Assembly (NCBI GenBank): GCA_934233745.1
Contig: CAKQGN010000005.1
Coordinates: forward strand, 37,257 to 101,256
Direction: 5' to 3'
DNA from: an uncultured Clostridia bacterium
GTDB taxonomy: Bacteria > Bacillota > Clostridia > Christensenellales > CAG-917
Length of the DNA stretch: 64,000 nt
A model generated the notes under the pieces. That model was given only the letters and a program-made list of their open reading frames with translations. It searched no databases and had not been told where the DNA came from. Both the position numbers and the translations under genes were made by a program. Below are positions 10,710-63,023 of the stretch, piece after piece. Within the stretch, counting starts at the first letter, position 1, and every line of letters starts with the position of its first letter.

Positions 10710-10747
10710 CAAAGTATAAAGTGTTTTGATATTTATATTTTCAAAAA

Positions 10748-10780
10748 AGAAAAAACACACTTGCGATGTGTTTTTTCTTT
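10748..10780. terminator. bidirectional intrinsic terminator between convergent genes
   Basis: Hairpin GAAAAAACACA..TGTGTTTTTTC flanked by an A-run and a T-run. Confidence 0.6.
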
Positions 10781-10804
10781 TTTGCATATGTTCGATTGTT
10801 GCTT

Positions 10805-17964: not shown

Positions 17965-17984
17965 TTTTTTACAACAATATATAT

Positions 17985-18011
17985 AAAAGCGCACGCATTG
18001 CGTGCGCTTTT
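17985..18011. terminator. bidirectional intrinsic terminator
   Basis: Perfect 12-bp stem AAAAGCGCACGC-ATT-GCGTGCGCTTTT. Confidence 0.7.
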
Positions 18012-18031
18012 ATATATGTCGCAATATGCGG

Positions 18032-21708: not shown

Positions 21709-21720
21709 ATAAAACTTATA

Positions 21721-21753
21721 AAAAAACTCGCGTCGAAGAACGCGAGTTTTTTT
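21721..21753. terminator. bidirectional intrinsic terminator
   Basis: AAAAAACTCGCG..CGCGAGTTTTTTT. Confidence 0.7.
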
Positions 21754-21767
21754 ATGCTTATTAAGTT

Positions 21768-45157: not shown

Positions 45158-45162
45158 TTTAA

Positions 45163-45272
45163 CCGCACTATTTGGCAAATTACATCGTAAGAGCCACTTT
45201 CCCAAACAGTCACGTACAAAGAGTACGCTTCTGCTTGTGAAAGCGGCTCTTTCTTGTGCTTTATCAAAGTGT
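45163..45272 (+). repeat. long-hairpin 3'-end element, copy 3
   Basis: Same architecture as 31677-31797. Stem AGAGCCACTTTCCCAAACAG..CTGCTTGTGAAAGCGGCTCT. Shared apex CAGTCACGTAC..AGTACGCT. Confidence 0.6.
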
Positions 45273-45324
45273 TGATTCATTGCGAGGAGCAACGAGAGTT
45301 GCGATAAGGCGTACTTATAAACGA

Positions 45325-45359
45325 TATGTGCAACTTCAAAGACGGAACACGAGCCGCAA
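45325..45359 (+). repeat. 35-nt direct repeat, copy 1
   Basis: TATGTGCAACTTCAAAGACGGAACACGAGCCGCAA, identical to 45519-45553. Confidence 0.85.
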
Positions 45360-45370
45360 CGGCAATGTAA

Positions 45371-45459
45371 GTGATATGCACGAATTCGTGCGTGATATTG
45401 TTGCTTTTTGCAACAATGATATTTGCGCTTTGCGCAAGTGATATTGCAACTTCGTTGCA
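45371..45459 (+). repeat. array of four [R]TGATAT-anchored mini-hairpins with four different perfect stems
   Basis: Four units: GTGATAT+GCACGAATTCGTGC, GTGATAT+TGTTGC-TTTTT-GCAACA, ATGATAT+TTGCGC-TTT-GCGCAA, GTGATAT+TGCAAC-TTC-GTTGCA. Confidence 0.85.
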
Positions 45460-45518
45460 GTTGTAGGTGGGACACTCACACCCGAACGGACACTTATTTA
45501 GGGCGTTCTTATACACGG

Positions 45519-45553
45519 TATGTGCAACTTCAAAGACGGAACACGAGCCGCAA
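45519..45553 (+). repeat. 35-nt direct repeat, copy 2
   Basis: Identical 35-mer, 194 bp downstream of copy 1. Confidence 0.85.
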
Positions 45554-45903
45554 GGCGGCGAGCAAGCGAACGCCGAGCTTGACGGATAGTACAAGCGACT
45601 GCGCCGTATTGTTGCGAAGCTGGCGCAAAAAGCGCAGTGGCATAATGAGGGAAATGTCCCTATCTATGCGAGTGCTGAGTGTTGTCCCCCGCTACGCGGT
45701 CACCGTGGGTGCCCTCAAGGTCACGCAGAGGGGGAACGGTGATAGGGAAAACACGTGAGGAAAGGGGACATAGTATTCAGAGTTCTAAACATTAACAATT
45801 TGTAGATGAAGAACAAAAGCACGTTTTGGGTTGTTAAATACTTCTTGTATTATTCTTTTGTTTTTGGTATAATTTGAAATAATAAAATACAATATGGTGA
45901 TTT

Positions 45904-47912: not shown

Positions 47913-50900
47913 TTGTTAAATTTCGTCAAAATCGAGGCGAGGGGCTTCAAGTCTTTTGCGGATAAAATCGAAATCCCTTTTCAAGAGGGTGTAACGGCGA
48001 TTATCGGCCCGAACGGGTGCGGTAAATCCAACGTTGCCGACGCAATCCGCTGGACGCTGGGTGAGCAAAGCGCAAAATCTCTGCGCGGCAAAAACATGCA
48101 AGATGTCATTTTTGCAGGCACCGAGAAACGCAAAAGCATGTCTTATTGCGAAGTTTCCCTTGTTTTCAACAACTCCGATCAACACATCTTCCCGACAATG
48201 CCGTTTGAAGAAGTGGTTATTACAAGAAAGCTTGACAGAAGCGGTTTGAGTGAGTACTACATAAACCACAATCGTGTTCGCATGCGCGACATTATTTCGC
48301 TTTTTCACGACACAGGCATCGGCAAAGAGGGCTATTCCATCATCGGACAGGGCAGAGTTGCCGAAATCATGTCGGCAAAACCGGGCGACCGTCGTCAGAT
48401 ATTCGAGGAAGCGGCGGGTATTTCCAAATTTCGCGCCCAACGCACCGAGGCGGAAAGAAAGCTTGAAAAAACGGCTGTCAATCTCGAAACGGCAAATCAG
48501 GTTATAGACGAAATTCAAAAACAAATTAACCCCCTCAAAAAACAAGCGGAAACCGCCGAAAAATATTTTGCTTTGAAAGACGACCTCAAAAAGAACGAGG
48601 TCAACTTGTATATTTACAATTACGAGAACAATCAAAGCATCAAACAAAAGATTTACGATCGCCTTGCCGTAAGCGAAAAAGATCTCAAAGTCAAAGAAAT
48701 GCAACTTGCCGAATGCATCAAAAAGTATGACGATTGCATAAGAGAGTCGGCAGGCATCGACCGCCTTTACGACGAAAGCAACAGCGAACTTATTGCACTT
48801 AAAGTCGACGCTGCCAAACTTGAAGGCGCAGCGGGCATTCTGCAAGAAAAAATCAAACACATAAACGGTGAAATCGCTCGTTTGAACAGCGAGCTTCAAT
48901 CGATCGACAACCAACTTGTCGTTTCCGCACAACTCATTCAAAAGGCGGAAGAGAAAAAAGAAGCCGAGTTTGAAATTTATCTTCAAACCAACCGCGAAGC
49001 AGAGGCATTGCAACAAAAATACGCGTCGCTGTCAAAGTCGTTGGCGGGTGCCGAAACCGATCTTGAAGCACGCAATATCGACTATGTAAAAGCGATTGAA
49101 GACCTTGGCGCACTCAAATCGAATTTGTCGGGATTCATTGCCGAAAAGGGCATAAACGACGAGAGAGCAAAAACTCTTTTATCGCTTGTCAATCAACAAA
49201 AAGCACGTCTTGACGAAGAACTTACGAATTTGTCCATTTATGACGGAAAAGTCAAGTCCACAAAGGAACGTATGCGCCAACTTATGAGCGAGTACAACGA
49301 GGCTCTTTCCGCAAAAATGGAAAATCAGGAGGCAATCCAAAGCTATGCGGAGGATATAGTCAGTTTGAATTCCAAACTCGGTCTTGCGCAGGGCAACCTC
49401 AATTTGTTGACGTCTATTAAAAACGAATATTCCGGATATCAGGAAGCCGTCAAACGTCTTATGCAAGACAGCAAACACGACCCCGTGTTGGCATCGAAGA
49501 TATGGGGCGTTTTGGCAGAAGTCATCACTGTTCCGAGCGATTTCGAAGCCGCAATCGAATATGCTTTGGGCGGTGCGATGCAAAACGTGCTTGTCGAAAC
49601 CGAGCGTGACGCAAGCGACCTCATCAACTATCTGAAACAAAAGGGTTACGGCCGTGTCACGTTCAGACCGCTAACATCCTGCCGTCCTCGTCCGCTTACG
49701 GGCGAAAACAGAGGCGTTCTCACGGAACCGGGGTGCTACGGGCTTGCGAGCGATCTTATAAAATACGACAAGAGATTTGACGGATTTGTGCAAACACTGT
49801 TGGGCGGTACTGTCGTCGTCAACAACATAGACAACGCAATCCGCATTTTCAAGAAGTACAACCAATCCATAAAAATCGTCACTTTGGACGGCGAAATTTT
49901 CTCACGCGGCGGTGAAATCACCGGTGGTTCGAGAAGATCTCAGACGCAAGGTTTGCTCGCCCAAGAGAAGAAAATCGAACAAGCACAAGCCAATCTCGAA
50001 AAAATCAAGAACAATATCGCGCTCATCAACAATCAGCGTGCCGAGCGCGAGCAGGAAATCAAGGATTTGTCCGACAAAATAGAGGAGTTAAACCGTGAAA
50101 TCAGTGAGTTGCGCATAGAAAACGGACTCAATGAGGACAAGTCGAAACAATCATATTCCGTCACACAATCTCTGCAAGAGGAAATCACCAAAAACGCCGA
50201 GGAATACGAAATCGTTAAGGCGAGAATCAAAGAGCTTGAAGAAAAGATGAGTTCTATCGATGAGCTTGAAAAAGTCGTTGCCGAAAAGAAAGAAGAGTAT
50301 ACCTCGATGCTCGAAAGCTCAAAGAGCGCAAGCTCCGAGCAGAAGAGCGAGAGAGAGGTCATGGCAGAGGAAGTGACTGAAATCAGGGTCAAACTTGCAG
50401 GACATAAGAGTATTTTGGACTCCTGCGATCAAGAGTTGTTCCGTTACAAACGAGAGAGAGAAAGCCTCGAAGACGAAAAACTCGACATAATTGCGTCCTT
50501 GAAGCTCGAACAGCAAAATCTCGACAATATAACCAACGCTCCCGAAAAGACCACGTTCTCCAAAGAGGATGAGGCTCGTATCGCCGCACTTGAAAAGCAA
50601 ATCGCCGATCTCAATGTCAGAAAGCGTACCATATCGGATGAAATAGTCGCTCTCGACCAGGATAAATCGCGTATTGCGGATGAGAGAATGGCAATAAACG
50701 AAAAGAAAGTGCGAGACGAAAATATGCTCGAAAATGTTGATATCGATATGCGCGCGCAACAACAGCACATTCTCGAAGATTACGATTTGACGTATTCCAG
50801 CGCACTTGAATTCAAGGATCCGGAATTTAAGGCATACGGCTCGCAAACGGTTATAAGCGAACTCAAAAAGTCCATTAACCGCCTCGGCGACGTCAACCCG

Positions 50901-51503
50901 CTTGCACTTCAAACCCTCAAAGAAACAGAGGAAAGATTGCAAGAGCAAACGACTTATCGCGATGACATCCAAAAGGCATATGACGATATCGTCACAATCA
51001 TAAACGAGCTTACGGGCGAAATGCAAACCAAGTTTTCGGACGCTTTCGACCAGATCAGCGAGAATTTCAAGGACGTGTTTCAACAACTCTTCGGCGGTGG
51101 CAAGGGTGAACTTCGCCTCAACATGCAAGACACTGAGGACGTGCTTGAAGCGGGCATCGACATCTATGCCCAACCCCCTGGAAAGAAACTGCAAAATATC
51201 AGCCTTTTGAGCGGTGGCGAGCAAGCATTGACGGCAATTTCAATCCTGTTTGCAATCCTCAAACTCAAACCGATGCCTTTCTGCGTCCTGGATGAAATCG
51301 AGGCGGCTCTCGACGATGCAAACGTCAACTTGTTTGCCGAATTCCTCAAAAAATTCAGCGATTATACGCAGTTTATCGTCATCACGCACAGAAAACCGAC
51401 CATGCGCCACGCAGACACGATTTTCGGTGTCACGATGGAAGAAAAGGGCGTTACAAAGATTGTTTCAATCGAGTTTGAAGAGGCGGCGAAACACGCAAAA
51501 TAA
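47913..51503 (+). CDS. smc: chromosome segregation protein SMC
   Basis: TTG start. Walker A GPNGCGKSN, long coiled coils, hinge, signature LSGGEQALTAI, Walker B FCVLDEIEAALD. Confidence 0.95.
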   Translation: MLNFVKIEARGFKSFADKIEIPFQEGVTAIIGPNGCGKSNVADAIRWTLGEQSAKSLRGKNMQDVIFAGTEKRKSMSYCEVSLVFNNSDQHIFPTMPFEEVVITRKLDRSGLSEYYINHNRVRMRDIISLFHDTGIGKEGYSIIGQGRVAEIMSAKPGDRRQIFEEAAGISKFRAQRTEAERKLEKTAVNLETANQVIDEIQKQINPLKKQAETAEKYFALKDDLKKNEVNLYIYNYENNQSIKQKIYDRLAVSEKDLKVKEMQLAECIKKYDDCIRESAGIDRLYDESNSELIALKVDAAKLEGAAGILQEKIKHINGEIARLNSELQSIDNQLVVSAQLIQKAEEKKEAEFEIYLQTNREAEALQQKYASLSKSLAGAETDLEARNIDYVKAIEDLGALKSNLSGFIAEKGINDERAKTLLSLVNQQKARLDEELTNLSIYDGKVKSTKERMRQLMSEYNEALSAKMENQEAIQSYAEDIVSLNSKLGLAQGNLNLLTSIKNEYSGYQEAVKRLMQDSKHDPVLASKIWGVLAEVITVPSDFEAAIEYALGGAMQNVLVETERDASDLINYLKQKGYGRVTFRPLTSCRPRPLTGENRGVLTEPGCYGLASDLIKYDKRFDGFVQTLLGGTVVVNNIDNAIRIFKKYNQSIKIVTLDGEIFSRGGEITGGSRRSQTQGLLAQEKKIEQAQANLEKIKNNIALINNQRAEREQEIKDLSDKIEELNREISELRIENGLNEDKSKQSYSVTQSLQEEITKNAEEYEIVKARIKELEEKMSSIDELEKVVAEKKEEYTSMLESSKSASSEQKSEREVMAEEVTEIRVKLAGHKSILDSCDQELFRYKRERESLEDEKLDIIASLKLEQQNLDNITNAPEKTTFSKEDEARIAALEKQIADLNVRKRTISDEIVALDQDKSRIADERMAINEKKVRDENMLENVDIDMRAQQQHILEDYDLTYSSALEFKDPEFKAYGSQTVISELKKSINRLGDVNPLALQTLKETEERLQEQTTYRDDIQKAYDDIVTIINELTGEMQTKFSDAFDQISENFKDVFQQLFGGGKGELRLNMQDTEDVLEAGIDIYAQPPGKKLQNISLLSGGEQALTAISILFAILKLKPMPFCVLDEIEAALDDANVNLFAEFLKKFSDYTQFIVITHRKPTMRHADTIFGVTMEEKGVTKIVSIEFEEAAKHAK

Positions 51504-51521
51504 TCGTCGCCAAGGCAACGG

Positions 51522-51770
51522 CATTGCTCAAACGGCGTTGCGGTTATGGCAACCGCCCAAATGTCATTCCGAGGAGCAAAGCGACGTGGGAACCCCCTAA
51601 ACAGAAACGCGACACAGTGGCGATTGCCATTGACCGCACTTGCTCTCGCAATTACTACCGCGCAGAAAATCTTTGCTATCAGTTCGAGCATGGATAAAAA
51701 CTCCTGCCACAGTTCCGCAAGATTGTCTGCTTGGTGGGTGCGCCTTTGGCGCAAGTGGAATATCCAAATC
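51522..51770 (+). repeat. ~250-bp direct repeat, copy 1
   Basis: From CATTGCTCAAACGGCGTTGCGGTTATGGCAACCGCC through GTGCGCCTTTGGCGCAAG. A near-identical copy starts 444 bp downstream. Confidence 0.85.
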
Positions 51771-51965
51771 TTCCTTTTGTCATTGCGAGGAGTAACGGAT
51801 GTTGCGACGTGGCAATCAAGCGGAGCGAAATGCGCCTGATGGCTGGATTCCCACGCTTACGCTCTGAATGACACGGGTGGGACACCCACACCCGATTGTC
51901 ATGTTGAGTGTAGTCGAAACATCTCCTGGAAAGGAAATGATGTAAATTGTCACAAGTATAGCGCA

Positions 51966-52216
51966 CATTGCTCAAACGGCGTTGCGGTTATTGCAACCGC
52001 CCGAATGTCATTCCGAGGAGCAAAGCGACGTGGGAATCCCCTAAATAGAAATGCGACACAGTGGCGATTGCCATTGACCGCACTTGTTCTCGCAATCACT
52101 ACCGCGCAGAAAATCTTTGCTATCGGTTCTAGCAGGGGCAAAACTCCTGCCGCAGTTTCGCAAGATTGTCTGCTTGGTGTGTGCGCCTTTGGCGCAAGCT
52201 GAATATTCCACAATCC
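51966..52216 (+). repeat. ~250-bp direct repeat, copy 2
   Basis: Collinear with 51522-51770. Differs by scattered substitutions and one divergent short patch. Confidence 0.85.
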
Positions 52217-52228
52217 AAACAATGTTTG

Positions 52229-52311
52229 GATATCATCTCACAAAGTGCGATATCACCGTGCAAAGCACGATATCATCTCAAAGTGATATCACCGCCGCAG
52301 GCGATATATCA
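52229..52311 (+). repeat. array of five GATATCA / GATATATCA motifs interleaved with mini-hairpins
   Basis: GATATCA at 52229, 52249, 52269 and 52285; GATATATCA at 52303. CGTGC-AAA-GCACG and CAC-AAA-GTG lie between units. Confidence 0.8.
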
Positions 52312-52342
52312 TTACGCAACGTATATAAATATGGAGTACACT

Positions 52343-53236
52343 ATGGGATTTTTTCAAAAAATCGTTCAAGGTATAAAGAAAACCAAAGACGCGTTTTCAA
52401 AAAAACTGTTTTTTGCATTTTCTGCAAGAGAACTCAATGATGAGTTTTACGAGAATCTCGAAGAAGCGTTGCTCACCGCCGACGTCGGCATAACCGCAAC
52501 CGAAAACCTCATCGATGAACTTAAAGACGAGATTTTTAAGCGTAAAATCAAAAAGCCCGAGGACGCAAAAAGCGTGCTTGCCGAGCTTATGGTTGAGGAT
52601 ATCGACTATGATATTCCCGAATATGAGTATCCGCTTGTCATATTGCTTTCGGGCGTGAACGGTGTTGGCAAAACCACCGCAATAGGCAAACTCGCGCATA
52701 TGTTCAAAGAGCAAGGACGTTCGGTAGTCGTTGCCGCCGCGGATACGTTCAGAGCCGCCGCAAGCGAACAACTCGAAGTGTGGGGTGAGCGTGCCGGGGT
52801 GCGCGTGATTCGTCACAGCGAGGGCGCAGATCCTGCTGCCGTCGTGTTTGACGCTATATCGTCGGCAAAGGCAAAAGGCAATGACGTCGTGCTTGTTGAC
52901 ACCGCCGGAAGACTCCATAACAAGAAAAATCTTATGGCGGAACTTCAAAAGATTTGTCGCGTTGTCGAGCGAGAATTGCCAAATGCGGACTTCCGCAAAT
53001 ATCTCGTTCTTGACGCCACAACCGGTCAAAACGCCGTATCCCAAGCCGAGATTTTCAGCGAGGATATCGACACCGACGGTATAATTCTCACCAAACTTGA
53101 CGGAACGGCAAAGGGCGGCGTGGTGCTTGCCATCAGCGAGGAGCTTGGACTTCCGGTCGTTTACGTCGGTGTTGGCGAAAAAATCGACGATTTGATTCCT
53201 TTCGACGCGAAAGATTTTATTAACGCATTGCTTTGA
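52343..53236 (+). CDS. ftsY: signal recognition particle receptor FtsY (NG domain only)
   Basis: GGAG RBS precedes ATG 52343. GVNGVGKTT, DTAGRLH, TKLDGTAKGG. The ORF-track N-terminal extension lies in repeat DNA and was discarded. Confidence 0.9.
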   Translation: MGFFQKIVQGIKKTKDAFSKKLFFAFSARELNDEFYENLEEALLTADVGITATENLIDELKDEIFKRKIKKPEDAKSVLAELMVEDIDYDIPEYEYPLVILLSGVNGVGKTTAIGKLAHMFKEQGRSVVVAAADTFRAAASEQLEVWGERAGVRVIRHSEGADPAAVVFDAISSAKAKGNDVVLVDTAGRLHNKKNLMAELQKICRVVERELPNADFRKYLVLDATTGQNAVSQAEIFSEDIDTDGIILTKLDGTAKGGVVLAISEELGLPVVYVGVGEKIDDLIPFDAKDFINALL

Positions 53237-53354
53237 GCGCACTATTGAGCGAATAACTGCGTCAGAGTCTGCCCCATAAACAGTCACGTACGCAAAGTAC
53301 GCTCCTGTCTATGTTGACAGGCTCTTTCTTGTTCTTCATCTCAATATTGCGCTC
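53235..53354 (+). repeat. long-hairpin 3'-end element, copy 4
   Basis: 15-nt inverted termini GAGCGCACTATTGAG / CTCAATATTGCGCTC (14/15), the left one overlapping the ftsY stop. Boxes GAGCGAATAACT and TTCTTCATCT. Stem CAGAGTCTGCCCCATAAACAG..CTGTCTATGTTGACAGGCTCT. Confidence 0.75.
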
Positions 53355-61958: not shown

Positions 61959-61976
61959 GAAATTACACATTACATC

Positions 61977-62006
61977 AAAAAGGACACTCTGCGGAGTGTC
62001 CTTTTT
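61977..62006. terminator. bidirectional intrinsic terminator
   Basis: AAAAAGGACACTC-TGCG-GAGTGTCCTTTTT. Confidence 0.7.
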
Positions 62007-62090
62007 GATGTTGTTTAACAAATTATATACGCAAATCGGTGTTGACCAAAGATATGTTTGTCAAAATATTTTTTAGATAAAAAATATCGG

Positions 62091-62989: not shown

Positions 62990-63023
62990 TTGCATTTTTT
63001 TGCGAATTTTCAAAAAAATGCAA
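62990..63023. repeat. 12-bp A/T-rich perfect inverted repeat just upstream of lepA
   Basis: TTGCATTTTTTT-GCGAATTTTC-AAAAAAATGCAA. Confidence 0.8.

Follow-up and report, generated by a model that had tools for sequence, protein, structure and literature searches.

A strain-variable, probably selfish mosaic of hairpin modules between smc and ftsY in an uncultured gut Clostridia bacterium

Introduction

What occupies the space between smc and ftsY? In a 64,000-nucleotide (nt) stretch of DNA from an uncultured Clostridia bacterium of the GTDB lineage CAG-917 (contig CAKQGN010000005.1; the whole stretch is referred to below as the window), these two genes are separated by a spacer of 839 bp that carries two copies of a unit of about 236 nt. 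A first-pass annotation of this DNA, made from the sequence alone, had drawn attention to the spacer and suggested that it might hold a duplicated small RNA (sRNA) gene, a nested pair of miniature inverted-repeat transposable elements (MITEs) or a protein-binding scaffold.

Here, we present a comparative analysis of the spacer and of related loci from human-gut assemblies. The spacer is a strain-variable nest of short, self-folding, non-coding modules, which in our view are probably selfish in nature and shuffled by recombination. Interspersed mosaics of hairpin repeats are in themselves a known kind of object. What appears, as far as our comparisons show, to be undescribed is this unit family with its three domains, the way in which it mixes with Gut-1-like arrays, and its candidate GIY-YIG nuclease partner.

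The repeat pair and its variation among strains

The repeat pair between smc and ftsY is real and far above chance. The two collinear copies described in the first-pass annotation are recovered by a repeat search as two pairs of segments, 51522-51699 with 51966-52143 and 51697-51763 with 52140-52206, each 93% identical and spaced by 444 and 443 bp, respectively, and blastn aligns the copies at 92.6% identity across 242 nt (E 3e-99). Pairwise alignment also agrees with the pattern of differences that had been reported, namely scattered substitutions and one divergent patch, located in the 5' arm of an inner hairpin, and adds a single 1-nt indel. With a family hidden Markov model (HMM) built from 58 non-redundant copies, nhmmer delimits copy A (51522..51758, + strand, ~236 nt) with E 9e-78 and HMM bounds of 51522-51757, and copy B (51966..52201, + strand) with E 2e-75 and bounds of 51966-52200. 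The same model detects no third copy in the 64-kb window.

The open reading frames (ORFs) called across the unit had been taken for artefacts, and they do indeed lack any Pfam match, with frames that are broken by indels between the copies. Only six ORFs in the database resemble the unit frame. A coding reading of the unit was rejected on these three grounds.

The spacer proves to be highly variable among close relatives. An exact-protein lookup in human-gut assemblies led to 20 contigs, all read, that encode the identical FtsY protein, and behind this single protein the spacer ranges from 127 bp up to 968 bp or more, with differing combinations of modules. The description of the window's spacer as oversized holds against six of these alleles, at 127, 154, 154, 528, 600 and 645 bp. 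To map the variation, we placed a small module library on 17 smc–ftsY alleles, in which U denotes the 236-nt unit and R a module of ~300 nt that recurs; a Gut-1-like array of hairpins is written G, and the conserved segment adjacent to ftsY is T (hairpins, prefixed hp, are described below). Short alleles read S-T, whilst L003 reads U-R-S3'-T, L006 reads hpCD-U-G-T and the window reads U-hpA-hpB-hpCD-U-G-T. Module T (52290..52342, + strand) is present in every spacer allele and includes the GGAG ribosome-binding site (52333-52336); in all strain contigs, ftsY starts at the ATG at 52343 behind this GGAG. The L085 allele corresponds to a short allele plus a clean 725-nt composite of a half-unit, hpCD, U and R, inserted between ...GCTACTGA and ACAATATC..., with L001 providing the empty allele.

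Two units are also found in L045 and L051, and in strains with a single copy the unit occupies either the smc-proximal or the ftsY-proximal position. Copy B of the window shares 96.3% identity with its counterpart in L006 and 95.8% with that in L003; for copy A and the L085 copy the figure is 94.9%, compared with 92.6% between A and B. Because each copy is closer to those of other strains than to its partner, the pair is not a recent in-place duplication, an origin that the first-pass annotation had named among the findings that would count against its own account and that these identities contradict. Instead, the window pair looks like the joining of an smc-proximal and an ftsY-proximal copy of the kind found singly in other strains, and the two copies appear to have arrived separately or by recombination between alleles. 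Across the 17 alleles and the neighbours of 94 unit copies, we find intergenic arrays built from a few modules in variable order and number, together with hairpin modules whose structure is kept across copies, as in mosaics of the BIME/BOX type.

A GIY-YIG cassette without its ORF

The 207 bp between copies A and B are made up of other known modules. A 94-nt stretch of them (51779..51872, + strand) comprises the hairpin hpA (51779-51817), a central piece consisting of AAGCGGAGCGAAA followed by TGCGCCTGATGGCT (51818-51844) and hpB (51845-51872), an inverted hairpin ending in GAATGAC, such that inverted hairpin ends are present. Comparison with related loci identifies this 94-nt module as what appears to be a small GIY-YIG nuclease cassette minus its ORF. 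In L052, which derives from a sample carrying many unit copies, a 90-amino-acid ORF (1174-1443) encoding a GIY-YIG domain (PF01541, E 3.5e-17) has the same hairpins on its flanks, and at two GIY-YIG paralogue loci, with proteins that are 84-99% identical, a hairpin and AGCGTAGCGAAA stand just before the ORF. In L114, a 290-nt insert comprising ribosome-binding site and ORF lies exactly between AGCGTAGCGAAA and TGCGGCTTGCGCC, followed by the inverted hairpin. Minus this insert, L114 aligns colinearly with window positions 51779-51872, as do the ORF-less modules in L052 and L120, and in all three of these (the window, L052 and L120) the junction is uninterrupted. A single, precise junction in a conserved site thus carries the ORF in some loci and lacks it in others, as expected of a homing-type cassette. 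The gene is also absent from the orthologous DUF4364 locus in L044 and L068.

Two further hairpins follow. The first, hpC, is a GGGTGGGACACCCACACCC hairpin (51875..51893, no strand assigned) that accompanies GUCCY-type hairpins beside GIY-YIG genes in related loci and has another copy in the window at 45466-45485. The second, hpD (51898..51926, + strand), is a second GUCCY-like hairpin of the form GTC-ATGTT-GAGTGTAGTCGAA-AACAT-CT that, together with the ~35 nt after it, makes up the module preceding copy B in several strains. Spacers beside GIY-YIG genes range from ~100 to 555 nt according to the number of hpA, hpB and hpC hairpins; in the csoR–copA spacer, which adjoins a GIY-YIG paralogue (L114-L119, 2180-2735), lengths of ~100-555 nt go with 1 to 9 copies of these modules. 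More distant GIY-YIG homologues, in Anaerocaecibacter muris and Planktothrix, have similar flanks. A loose regular-expression scan for GIY-YIG in six frames produced no candidate gene in the window.

The hairpins also provide a potential link between the cassette and the unit. The apical hairpin of copy A (51563..51595, + strand) reads GTC-ATTCC-(18 nt with a GCAAAGC mini-hairpin)-GGAAC-CC, the C in GGAAC replacing the T of GGAAT, and is of the same sequence type as hpA. As judged by sequence pattern, it belongs to the same GUCCY type as the hairpins that flank the nuclease gene in related loci. The GUCCY-hairpin is a candidate motif, not included in Rfam, near which a possible excess of COG2827 (URI/GIY-YIG) genes was reported and whose alignment file contains 104 occurrences of GUCAUUCC (Weinberg et al. 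2010, Genome Biol 11:R31). A search for later literature on the association of GUCCY-hairpin with COG2827 found none. The first-pass annotation had missed both the strain-level mosaic and the ORF-less cassette.

These observations raise the possibility, which we put forward tentatively and regard as rather unlikely in its full form, that GUCCY-type hairpins and COG2827-like GIY-YIG nucleases consisting of the catalytic domain only make up an uncharacterised mobile system, with the nuclease driving both the copying and the shuffling of ORF-less modules. Such a nuclease would act on structured hairpin DNA, following a logic comparable to that of REP/RAYT, and the modules driven by it would include the 236-nt unit, module R and the Gut-1-like arrays.

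A dispersed family in one gut lineage

The unit is a genuine non-coding, stem-rich repeat that is also found outside the window and is conserved, contrary to the refuting case set out in the first-pass annotation. A 21-mer from the apical hairpin retrieved unit copies on 93 metagenome contig stretches, all of them from human gut. The family HMM gives 150 matches (copies or fragments) in the loci collected, of which 87 span the full length; the copies lie in ~44 distinct upstream-gene contexts and have a conserved fold. One sample has 11 copy-bearing contigs at ~5x coverage and another has at least 7 copies on four contigs; the number of copies per genome is roughly 10 or more. The neighbours are core genes such as those for PEPCK, SHMT, aldolase, PGK, tRNA synthetases, GyrB, DnaN, Spo0A and YidC, and among the top 25 families listed, no Pfam family recurs beside the unit in more than 2 of the 76 flank clusters. 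The unit is co-oriented with the upstream gene in a ratio of 33:11. Its orientation relative to GC skew (44:31) is not stronger than this gene-orientation bias, and a replication-linked orientation was dropped at that ratio.

Homology within the family starts sharply at (C)ATTGCTCAAACGG and ends after the terminal hairpin. Half-units consisting of domain 2 alone (n = 14) and truncated copies are common, as are head-to-tail clusters with spacings of 241, 307, 349 and 410 nt, so that the 444-bp 'period' in the window is one value among many. Unit copies also keep regular company: module R follows directly after the unit in 46 of 94 copies, hpB or hpCD often adjoin it, hpCD lies upstream of nine copies and the modules are co-oriented with one another. 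A full copy of module R (~300 nt) is found in the rpmF–plsX spacer of the window (45485-45790), along with a 5' fragment (45305-45361). Module R has 112 HMM matches in related loci, and in many cases its first ~55 nt stand in front of the unit as well. Rfam yielded no match to module R (E-value mode, rpmF–plsX spacer) and RNAalifold was uninformative.

The family is hosted by a single uncultured lineage of human-gut Clostridia, close to 'Firmicutes bacterium CAG:475'. A scan of species genomes with a 20-mer from the 3' arm gave one real match, in 'Firmicutes bacterium CAG:475' itself, and ten chance matches in GC-rich genomes; the CAG:475 copy is 78.5% identical and lies in another gene context. 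Also in CAG:475 (L013, 360-1284, - strand), a 299-amino-acid ORF directly adjoins a fusion of part of module R with 50 nt from the 5' end of the unit, and begins just behind it. From the look of its sequence, this ORF may be a truncated RqcH/NFACT-type gene, and its abutting the repeat fragments suggests a gene disrupted by, or recombined with, repeats. No match to the unit was found in viral contigs, nor in Rfam at E values up to 10 (spacer, E-value mode). In gathering mode, Rfam returned signal recognition particle (SRP) RNA and tRNAs only from the window and 16 related loci, and a literature search with the hairpin sequence returned unrelated primer matches only.

The fold of the unit

Comparative analysis resolves the unit into three hairpin domains, in each of which compensatory changes preserve the pairing. 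In copy A, domain 1 (51523-51652) contains helices P0/P1, which close on the apical hairpin, domain 2 is helix P2 (51662-51730) and the third is the terminal hairpin P3 (51739-51753). The corresponding parts of copy B are at 51967-52096 (domain 1, with the apical hairpin at 52007-52039), 52106-52173 (P2) and 52182-52196 (P3), all on the + strand. The fold was tested on 45 pairs in P0/P1, the apical hairpin, P2 and P3, using a 63-sequence alignment (A2). Of the cells at these pairs, 90.5% are paired, compared with 26-44% with slid partners. Both sides have changed at 23 pairs, and 179 cells are compensated against 59 in shuffles, a level reached in none of 500 shuffles. Examples include columns 30/139 (UA in 34 sequences, CG in 24), 33/137 (CG in 34, AU in 24) and 167/254 (GC in 41, AU in 18). 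The terminal hairpin retains its 6-bp stem and 3-nt loop under three different stem sequences, and is followed by AAG(C/T)GGA(A/T), with no T run after it.

Columns of the MAFFT alignment support P0, P1 and P2. Domain 2 has two architectures, and RNAalifold, when run on the MAFFT alignment, yields P0/P1 only, because the subfamilies are misaligned in domain 2. As to strand, the + strand has 63 G.U cells and the - strand has 126, which slightly favours the latter, and both strands fold better than shuffles to an equal degree (z about -3).

The local stems that the first-pass annotation had picked out fared unevenly. The GCGCC-TTT-GGCGC stem is a real, covarying hairpin and the GTCATTCC...GGGAAT module is likewise a real hairpin. 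The GCGGTT-ATGGC-AACCGC stem does not represent conserved pairing: its halves pair with partners ~100 nt away, and a C-to-A change seen in 28 sequences is uncompensated within the local stem yet compensated by the distant partner. The long-range helices had been missed.

Neither copy is preceded by a convincing sigma-70-like promoter or followed by a terminator-like site. The most conserved stretch of the unit (51589-51603 and 52033-52047) reads GAGGAG-N9-GTG GGA ATC CCC TAA, which is a Shine-Dalgarno-like site followed by GTG and a four-codon frame; this may be coincidence, and the invariance of the stretch comes in part from the search pattern.

Gut-1-like arrays

Copy B is followed by a Gut-1-like array (52229..52314, - strand) of four or five short hairpins separated by GTGATAT (GATATCA on the + strand). 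Rfam RF01706 scores 44.5 bits here (52245-52314, - strand, E 3e-7) and 48.7 bits at a second array (45369-45449, + strand), both below the gathering score of 50, and none of the 16 related loci has a Gut-1 match at the gathering score. The number of hairpins differs between strains and the two window arrays are in opposite orientations, which together suggest that Gut-1-like arrays may be repeat modules rather than discrete sRNAs.

Selfish DNA, functional RNA or transposable element?

How are these findings best explained? The resemblance of one module to a GIY-YIG cassette emptied of its gene suggests that the spacer is probably filled with selfish DNA rather than with a duplicated RNA gene. 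On the explanation that we favour, the modules would be selfish DNA persisting in dispensable intergenic space, where recombination or gene conversion would copy and rearrange them, with the GIY-YIG nuclease found beside the hairpins as a plausible trigger. Their fold would be kept because it is needed for propagation or for tolerance in read-through transcripts.

Several points weigh against this explanation. The window has no nuclease gene and only one of ~44 unit contexts has one nearby, with the consequence that the link between unit and nuclease rests on the shared hairpin type and on co-occurrence in mosaics; cleavage by the nuclease, its target and movement of the modules are all putative. 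Conserved unpaired stretches, such as GGGACAAAAACTC and ACCGCGCA, and the 33:11 co-orientation with the upstream gene would fit a functional RNA as well. The covariation comes from a few subfamilies and hence reflects few independent events. In addition, the copies were gathered by an exact 21-mer from the apical hairpin, which biases the apparent host range, makes that stretch invariant by construction and misses divergent relatives.

The best-placed alternative is that the unit is a functional structured RNA, either a multi-copy small or medium-sized RNA gene or, within read-through or operon transcripts, a cis-acting domain with a role in stabilising, processing or insulating the mRNA next to it. 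Selection on RNA function would then maintain the fold, and the mosaic context would be secondary. Compensatory support for the three domains is strong, single-stranded motifs are conserved across subfamilies and the modules are co-oriented with each other as well as with the upstream gene. No terminator was found after smc and the spacer is therefore probably co-transcribed, and the neighbouring arrays resemble Gut-1, which has been rated a likely RNA (Weinberg et al. 2010, Genome Biol 11:R31). The unit lacks a recognisable promoter or terminator of its own, however, and neither the wobble asymmetry (63 on + against 126 on -) nor the z-scores, which are equal on both strands, pick out a folded strand. 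Strains whose flanking genes are identical differ in whether the unit is present, half-units and truncated forms occur often, the neighbours are unrelated housekeeping genes and, in the rpmF–plsX spacer, the modules sit between a terminator-like element and a downstream promoter. We therefore consider a functional RNA unlikely, though well worth keeping in mind. In its specific form of a duplicated sRNA gene, as first suggested, the idea fits poorly with copies that are shuffled along with other modules, that have neither promoter nor terminator and whose folded strand is ambiguous.

A third explanation, which we regard as improbable, is that the unit is a classical MITE or a palindrome-associated element of the IS200/IS605 type, moved by a transposase encoded elsewhere in the genome. 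The unit is certainly small, non-coding, multi-copy and hairpin-rich, its presence is polymorphic, its left boundary at (C)ATTGCTCAAACGG is sharp, and the absence of terminal inverted repeats and target duplications would be compatible with single-strand (HUH) transposition. Set against this, the unit ends, CATTGCTCAAACGG... and ...GCGCAAGCGGATAAAC, are not inverted copies of each other, the inverted arms being internal to the first 130 nt. Comparison with L001 reveals no target-site duplication at the 725-nt insertion in L085, there is no conserved target sequence on the left flank and alleles differ by block replacement rather than by simple insertion. No transposase recurs in the 76 flank clusters (among the top 25 families listed), there is no Rfam match to the IS605-orfB or HEARO RNAs and orientation relative to GC skew is only 44:31. 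The nested MITE pair proposed at the outset is not supported, given the missing terminal inverted repeats and target-site duplications and the arrangement of the copies, which are not nested but follow one another head to tail with other modules in between.

Finally, the copies do have the same orientation and lie 444 bp apart, but a recent, local and meaningless tandem duplication by replication slippage in one strain can be dismissed as extremely improbable, given that each copy is closer to those of other strains than to its partner, that the intervening 207 bp are other known modules, that other strains hold a single copy at the smc-proximal or ftsY-proximal position and that the unit family occupies ~44 other contexts.

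Comparison with known systems

The GUCCY-hairpin is defined by GUC, a hairpin starting AUUC(C/U) and CY. As judged by sequence pattern, the unit apical hairpin, hpB and hpD appear to fit, with flanks and first 5 bp that match published examples (GUC.AUUCC...GGAAU); GIY-YIG adjacency is seen directly in related loci (L052, L114-L125), not in the window. Those in the literature come from Bacteroidetes and Proteobacteria and are short hairpins paired throughout, whereas here the host belongs to the Clostridia and the 5-bp stem encloses an interior of 11-24 nt that holds a mini-hairpin, in effect a large loop. Within the unit, moreover, a long-range stem of 130 nt encloses the hairpin.

The BIME/REP elements of E. 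coli, the pneumococcal BOX elements and the bcr elements of Bacillus cereus are intergenic, multi-copy, hairpin-forming, modular and strain-variable repeats. The window modules resemble them in varying by combination and strain, in the compensatory preservation of structure and in often lying downstream of co-oriented genes. They differ in having no sequence similarity to these elements and in being larger (a 236-nt three-domain unit and R at ~300 nt), and their candidate partner is a catalytic-domain-only GIY-YIG nuclease rather than a RAYT (HUH) transposase. The copy number of the unit per genome also appears low, in the tens.

Like Gut-1 (RF01706), the arrays described above consist of sequence-variable hairpins split by a conserved heptamer and occur in human-gut sequence only, and P3 with its AAG(C/T)GGA(A/T) is the same kind of building block. 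The heptamer is GTGATAT here rather than GUGAAAU and the scores lie below the gathering threshold. Unlike Gut-1, moreover, the arrays can face either way with respect to adjacent modules, and their hairpin number varies by strain.

The Seg genes of phage T4 are free-standing GIY-YIG homing endonuclease genes. The cassette shares with such genes a small ORF that is present or absent at a precise junction, and neighbouring DNA that varies as if co-converted. It differs in that the protein, at ~90 amino acids, is a catalytic domain only, without a DNA-binding extension, and in that its sites are repeated intergenic hairpin modules of a bacterial chromosome and not a unique site in a phage gene.

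Flanking genes and other repeats

The gene to the left of the spacer, smc (47913..51503, + strand), matches Pfam SMC_N (E 5e-67) and SMC_hinge (E 6e-28), and the same 1196-amino-acid gene is called in the strain contigs. To the right, ftsY (52343..53236, + strand) encodes 297 amino acids and matches SRP54 (E 5e-78) and SRP54_N. The neighbouring ftsY–ylxM spacer is also variable: behind identical FtsY proteins, an Mrr-like restriction endonuclease gene is inserted in L004 (7228-8613) and L007 (1423-2883) and is missing from the window.

A third repeat family, of ~100 nt, is present in the window at 53248-53347, 31690-31788 and 45158-45265, with two of the copies being 90% identical; the places concerned are immediately behind ftsY, behind rpmF and close to the SRP RNA. 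It consists of a long hairpin and then a T-rich tail and resembles a repeated terminator element; in other loci, the unit abuts such an element. Self-comparison of the window also revealed near-perfect palindromes of 34-44 nt at 17979-18017, 61972-62011, 10742-10784, 62990-63023 and 21718-21755, which are probably terminators.

Concluding remarks

What the spacer means for the biology of this lineage depends on which explanation holds. If the unit were a functional RNA, a new structured RNA of ~240 nt would have come to light, one that exists in multiple copies, shows good covariation and is fit for a family model. If the modules are selfish, then the spurious ORFs and 'novel sRNAs' in the oversized spacers of metagenome-assembled genomes of this gut lineage would be repeat mosaics, and spacer length could serve as a sensitive strain marker. 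Should the GIY-YIG link hold as well, it would assign to the widespread small GIY-YIG proteins the function of driving the mobility of hairpin repeats, and two orphan motifs of 2010, GUCCY-hairpin and Gut-1, would gain an origin.

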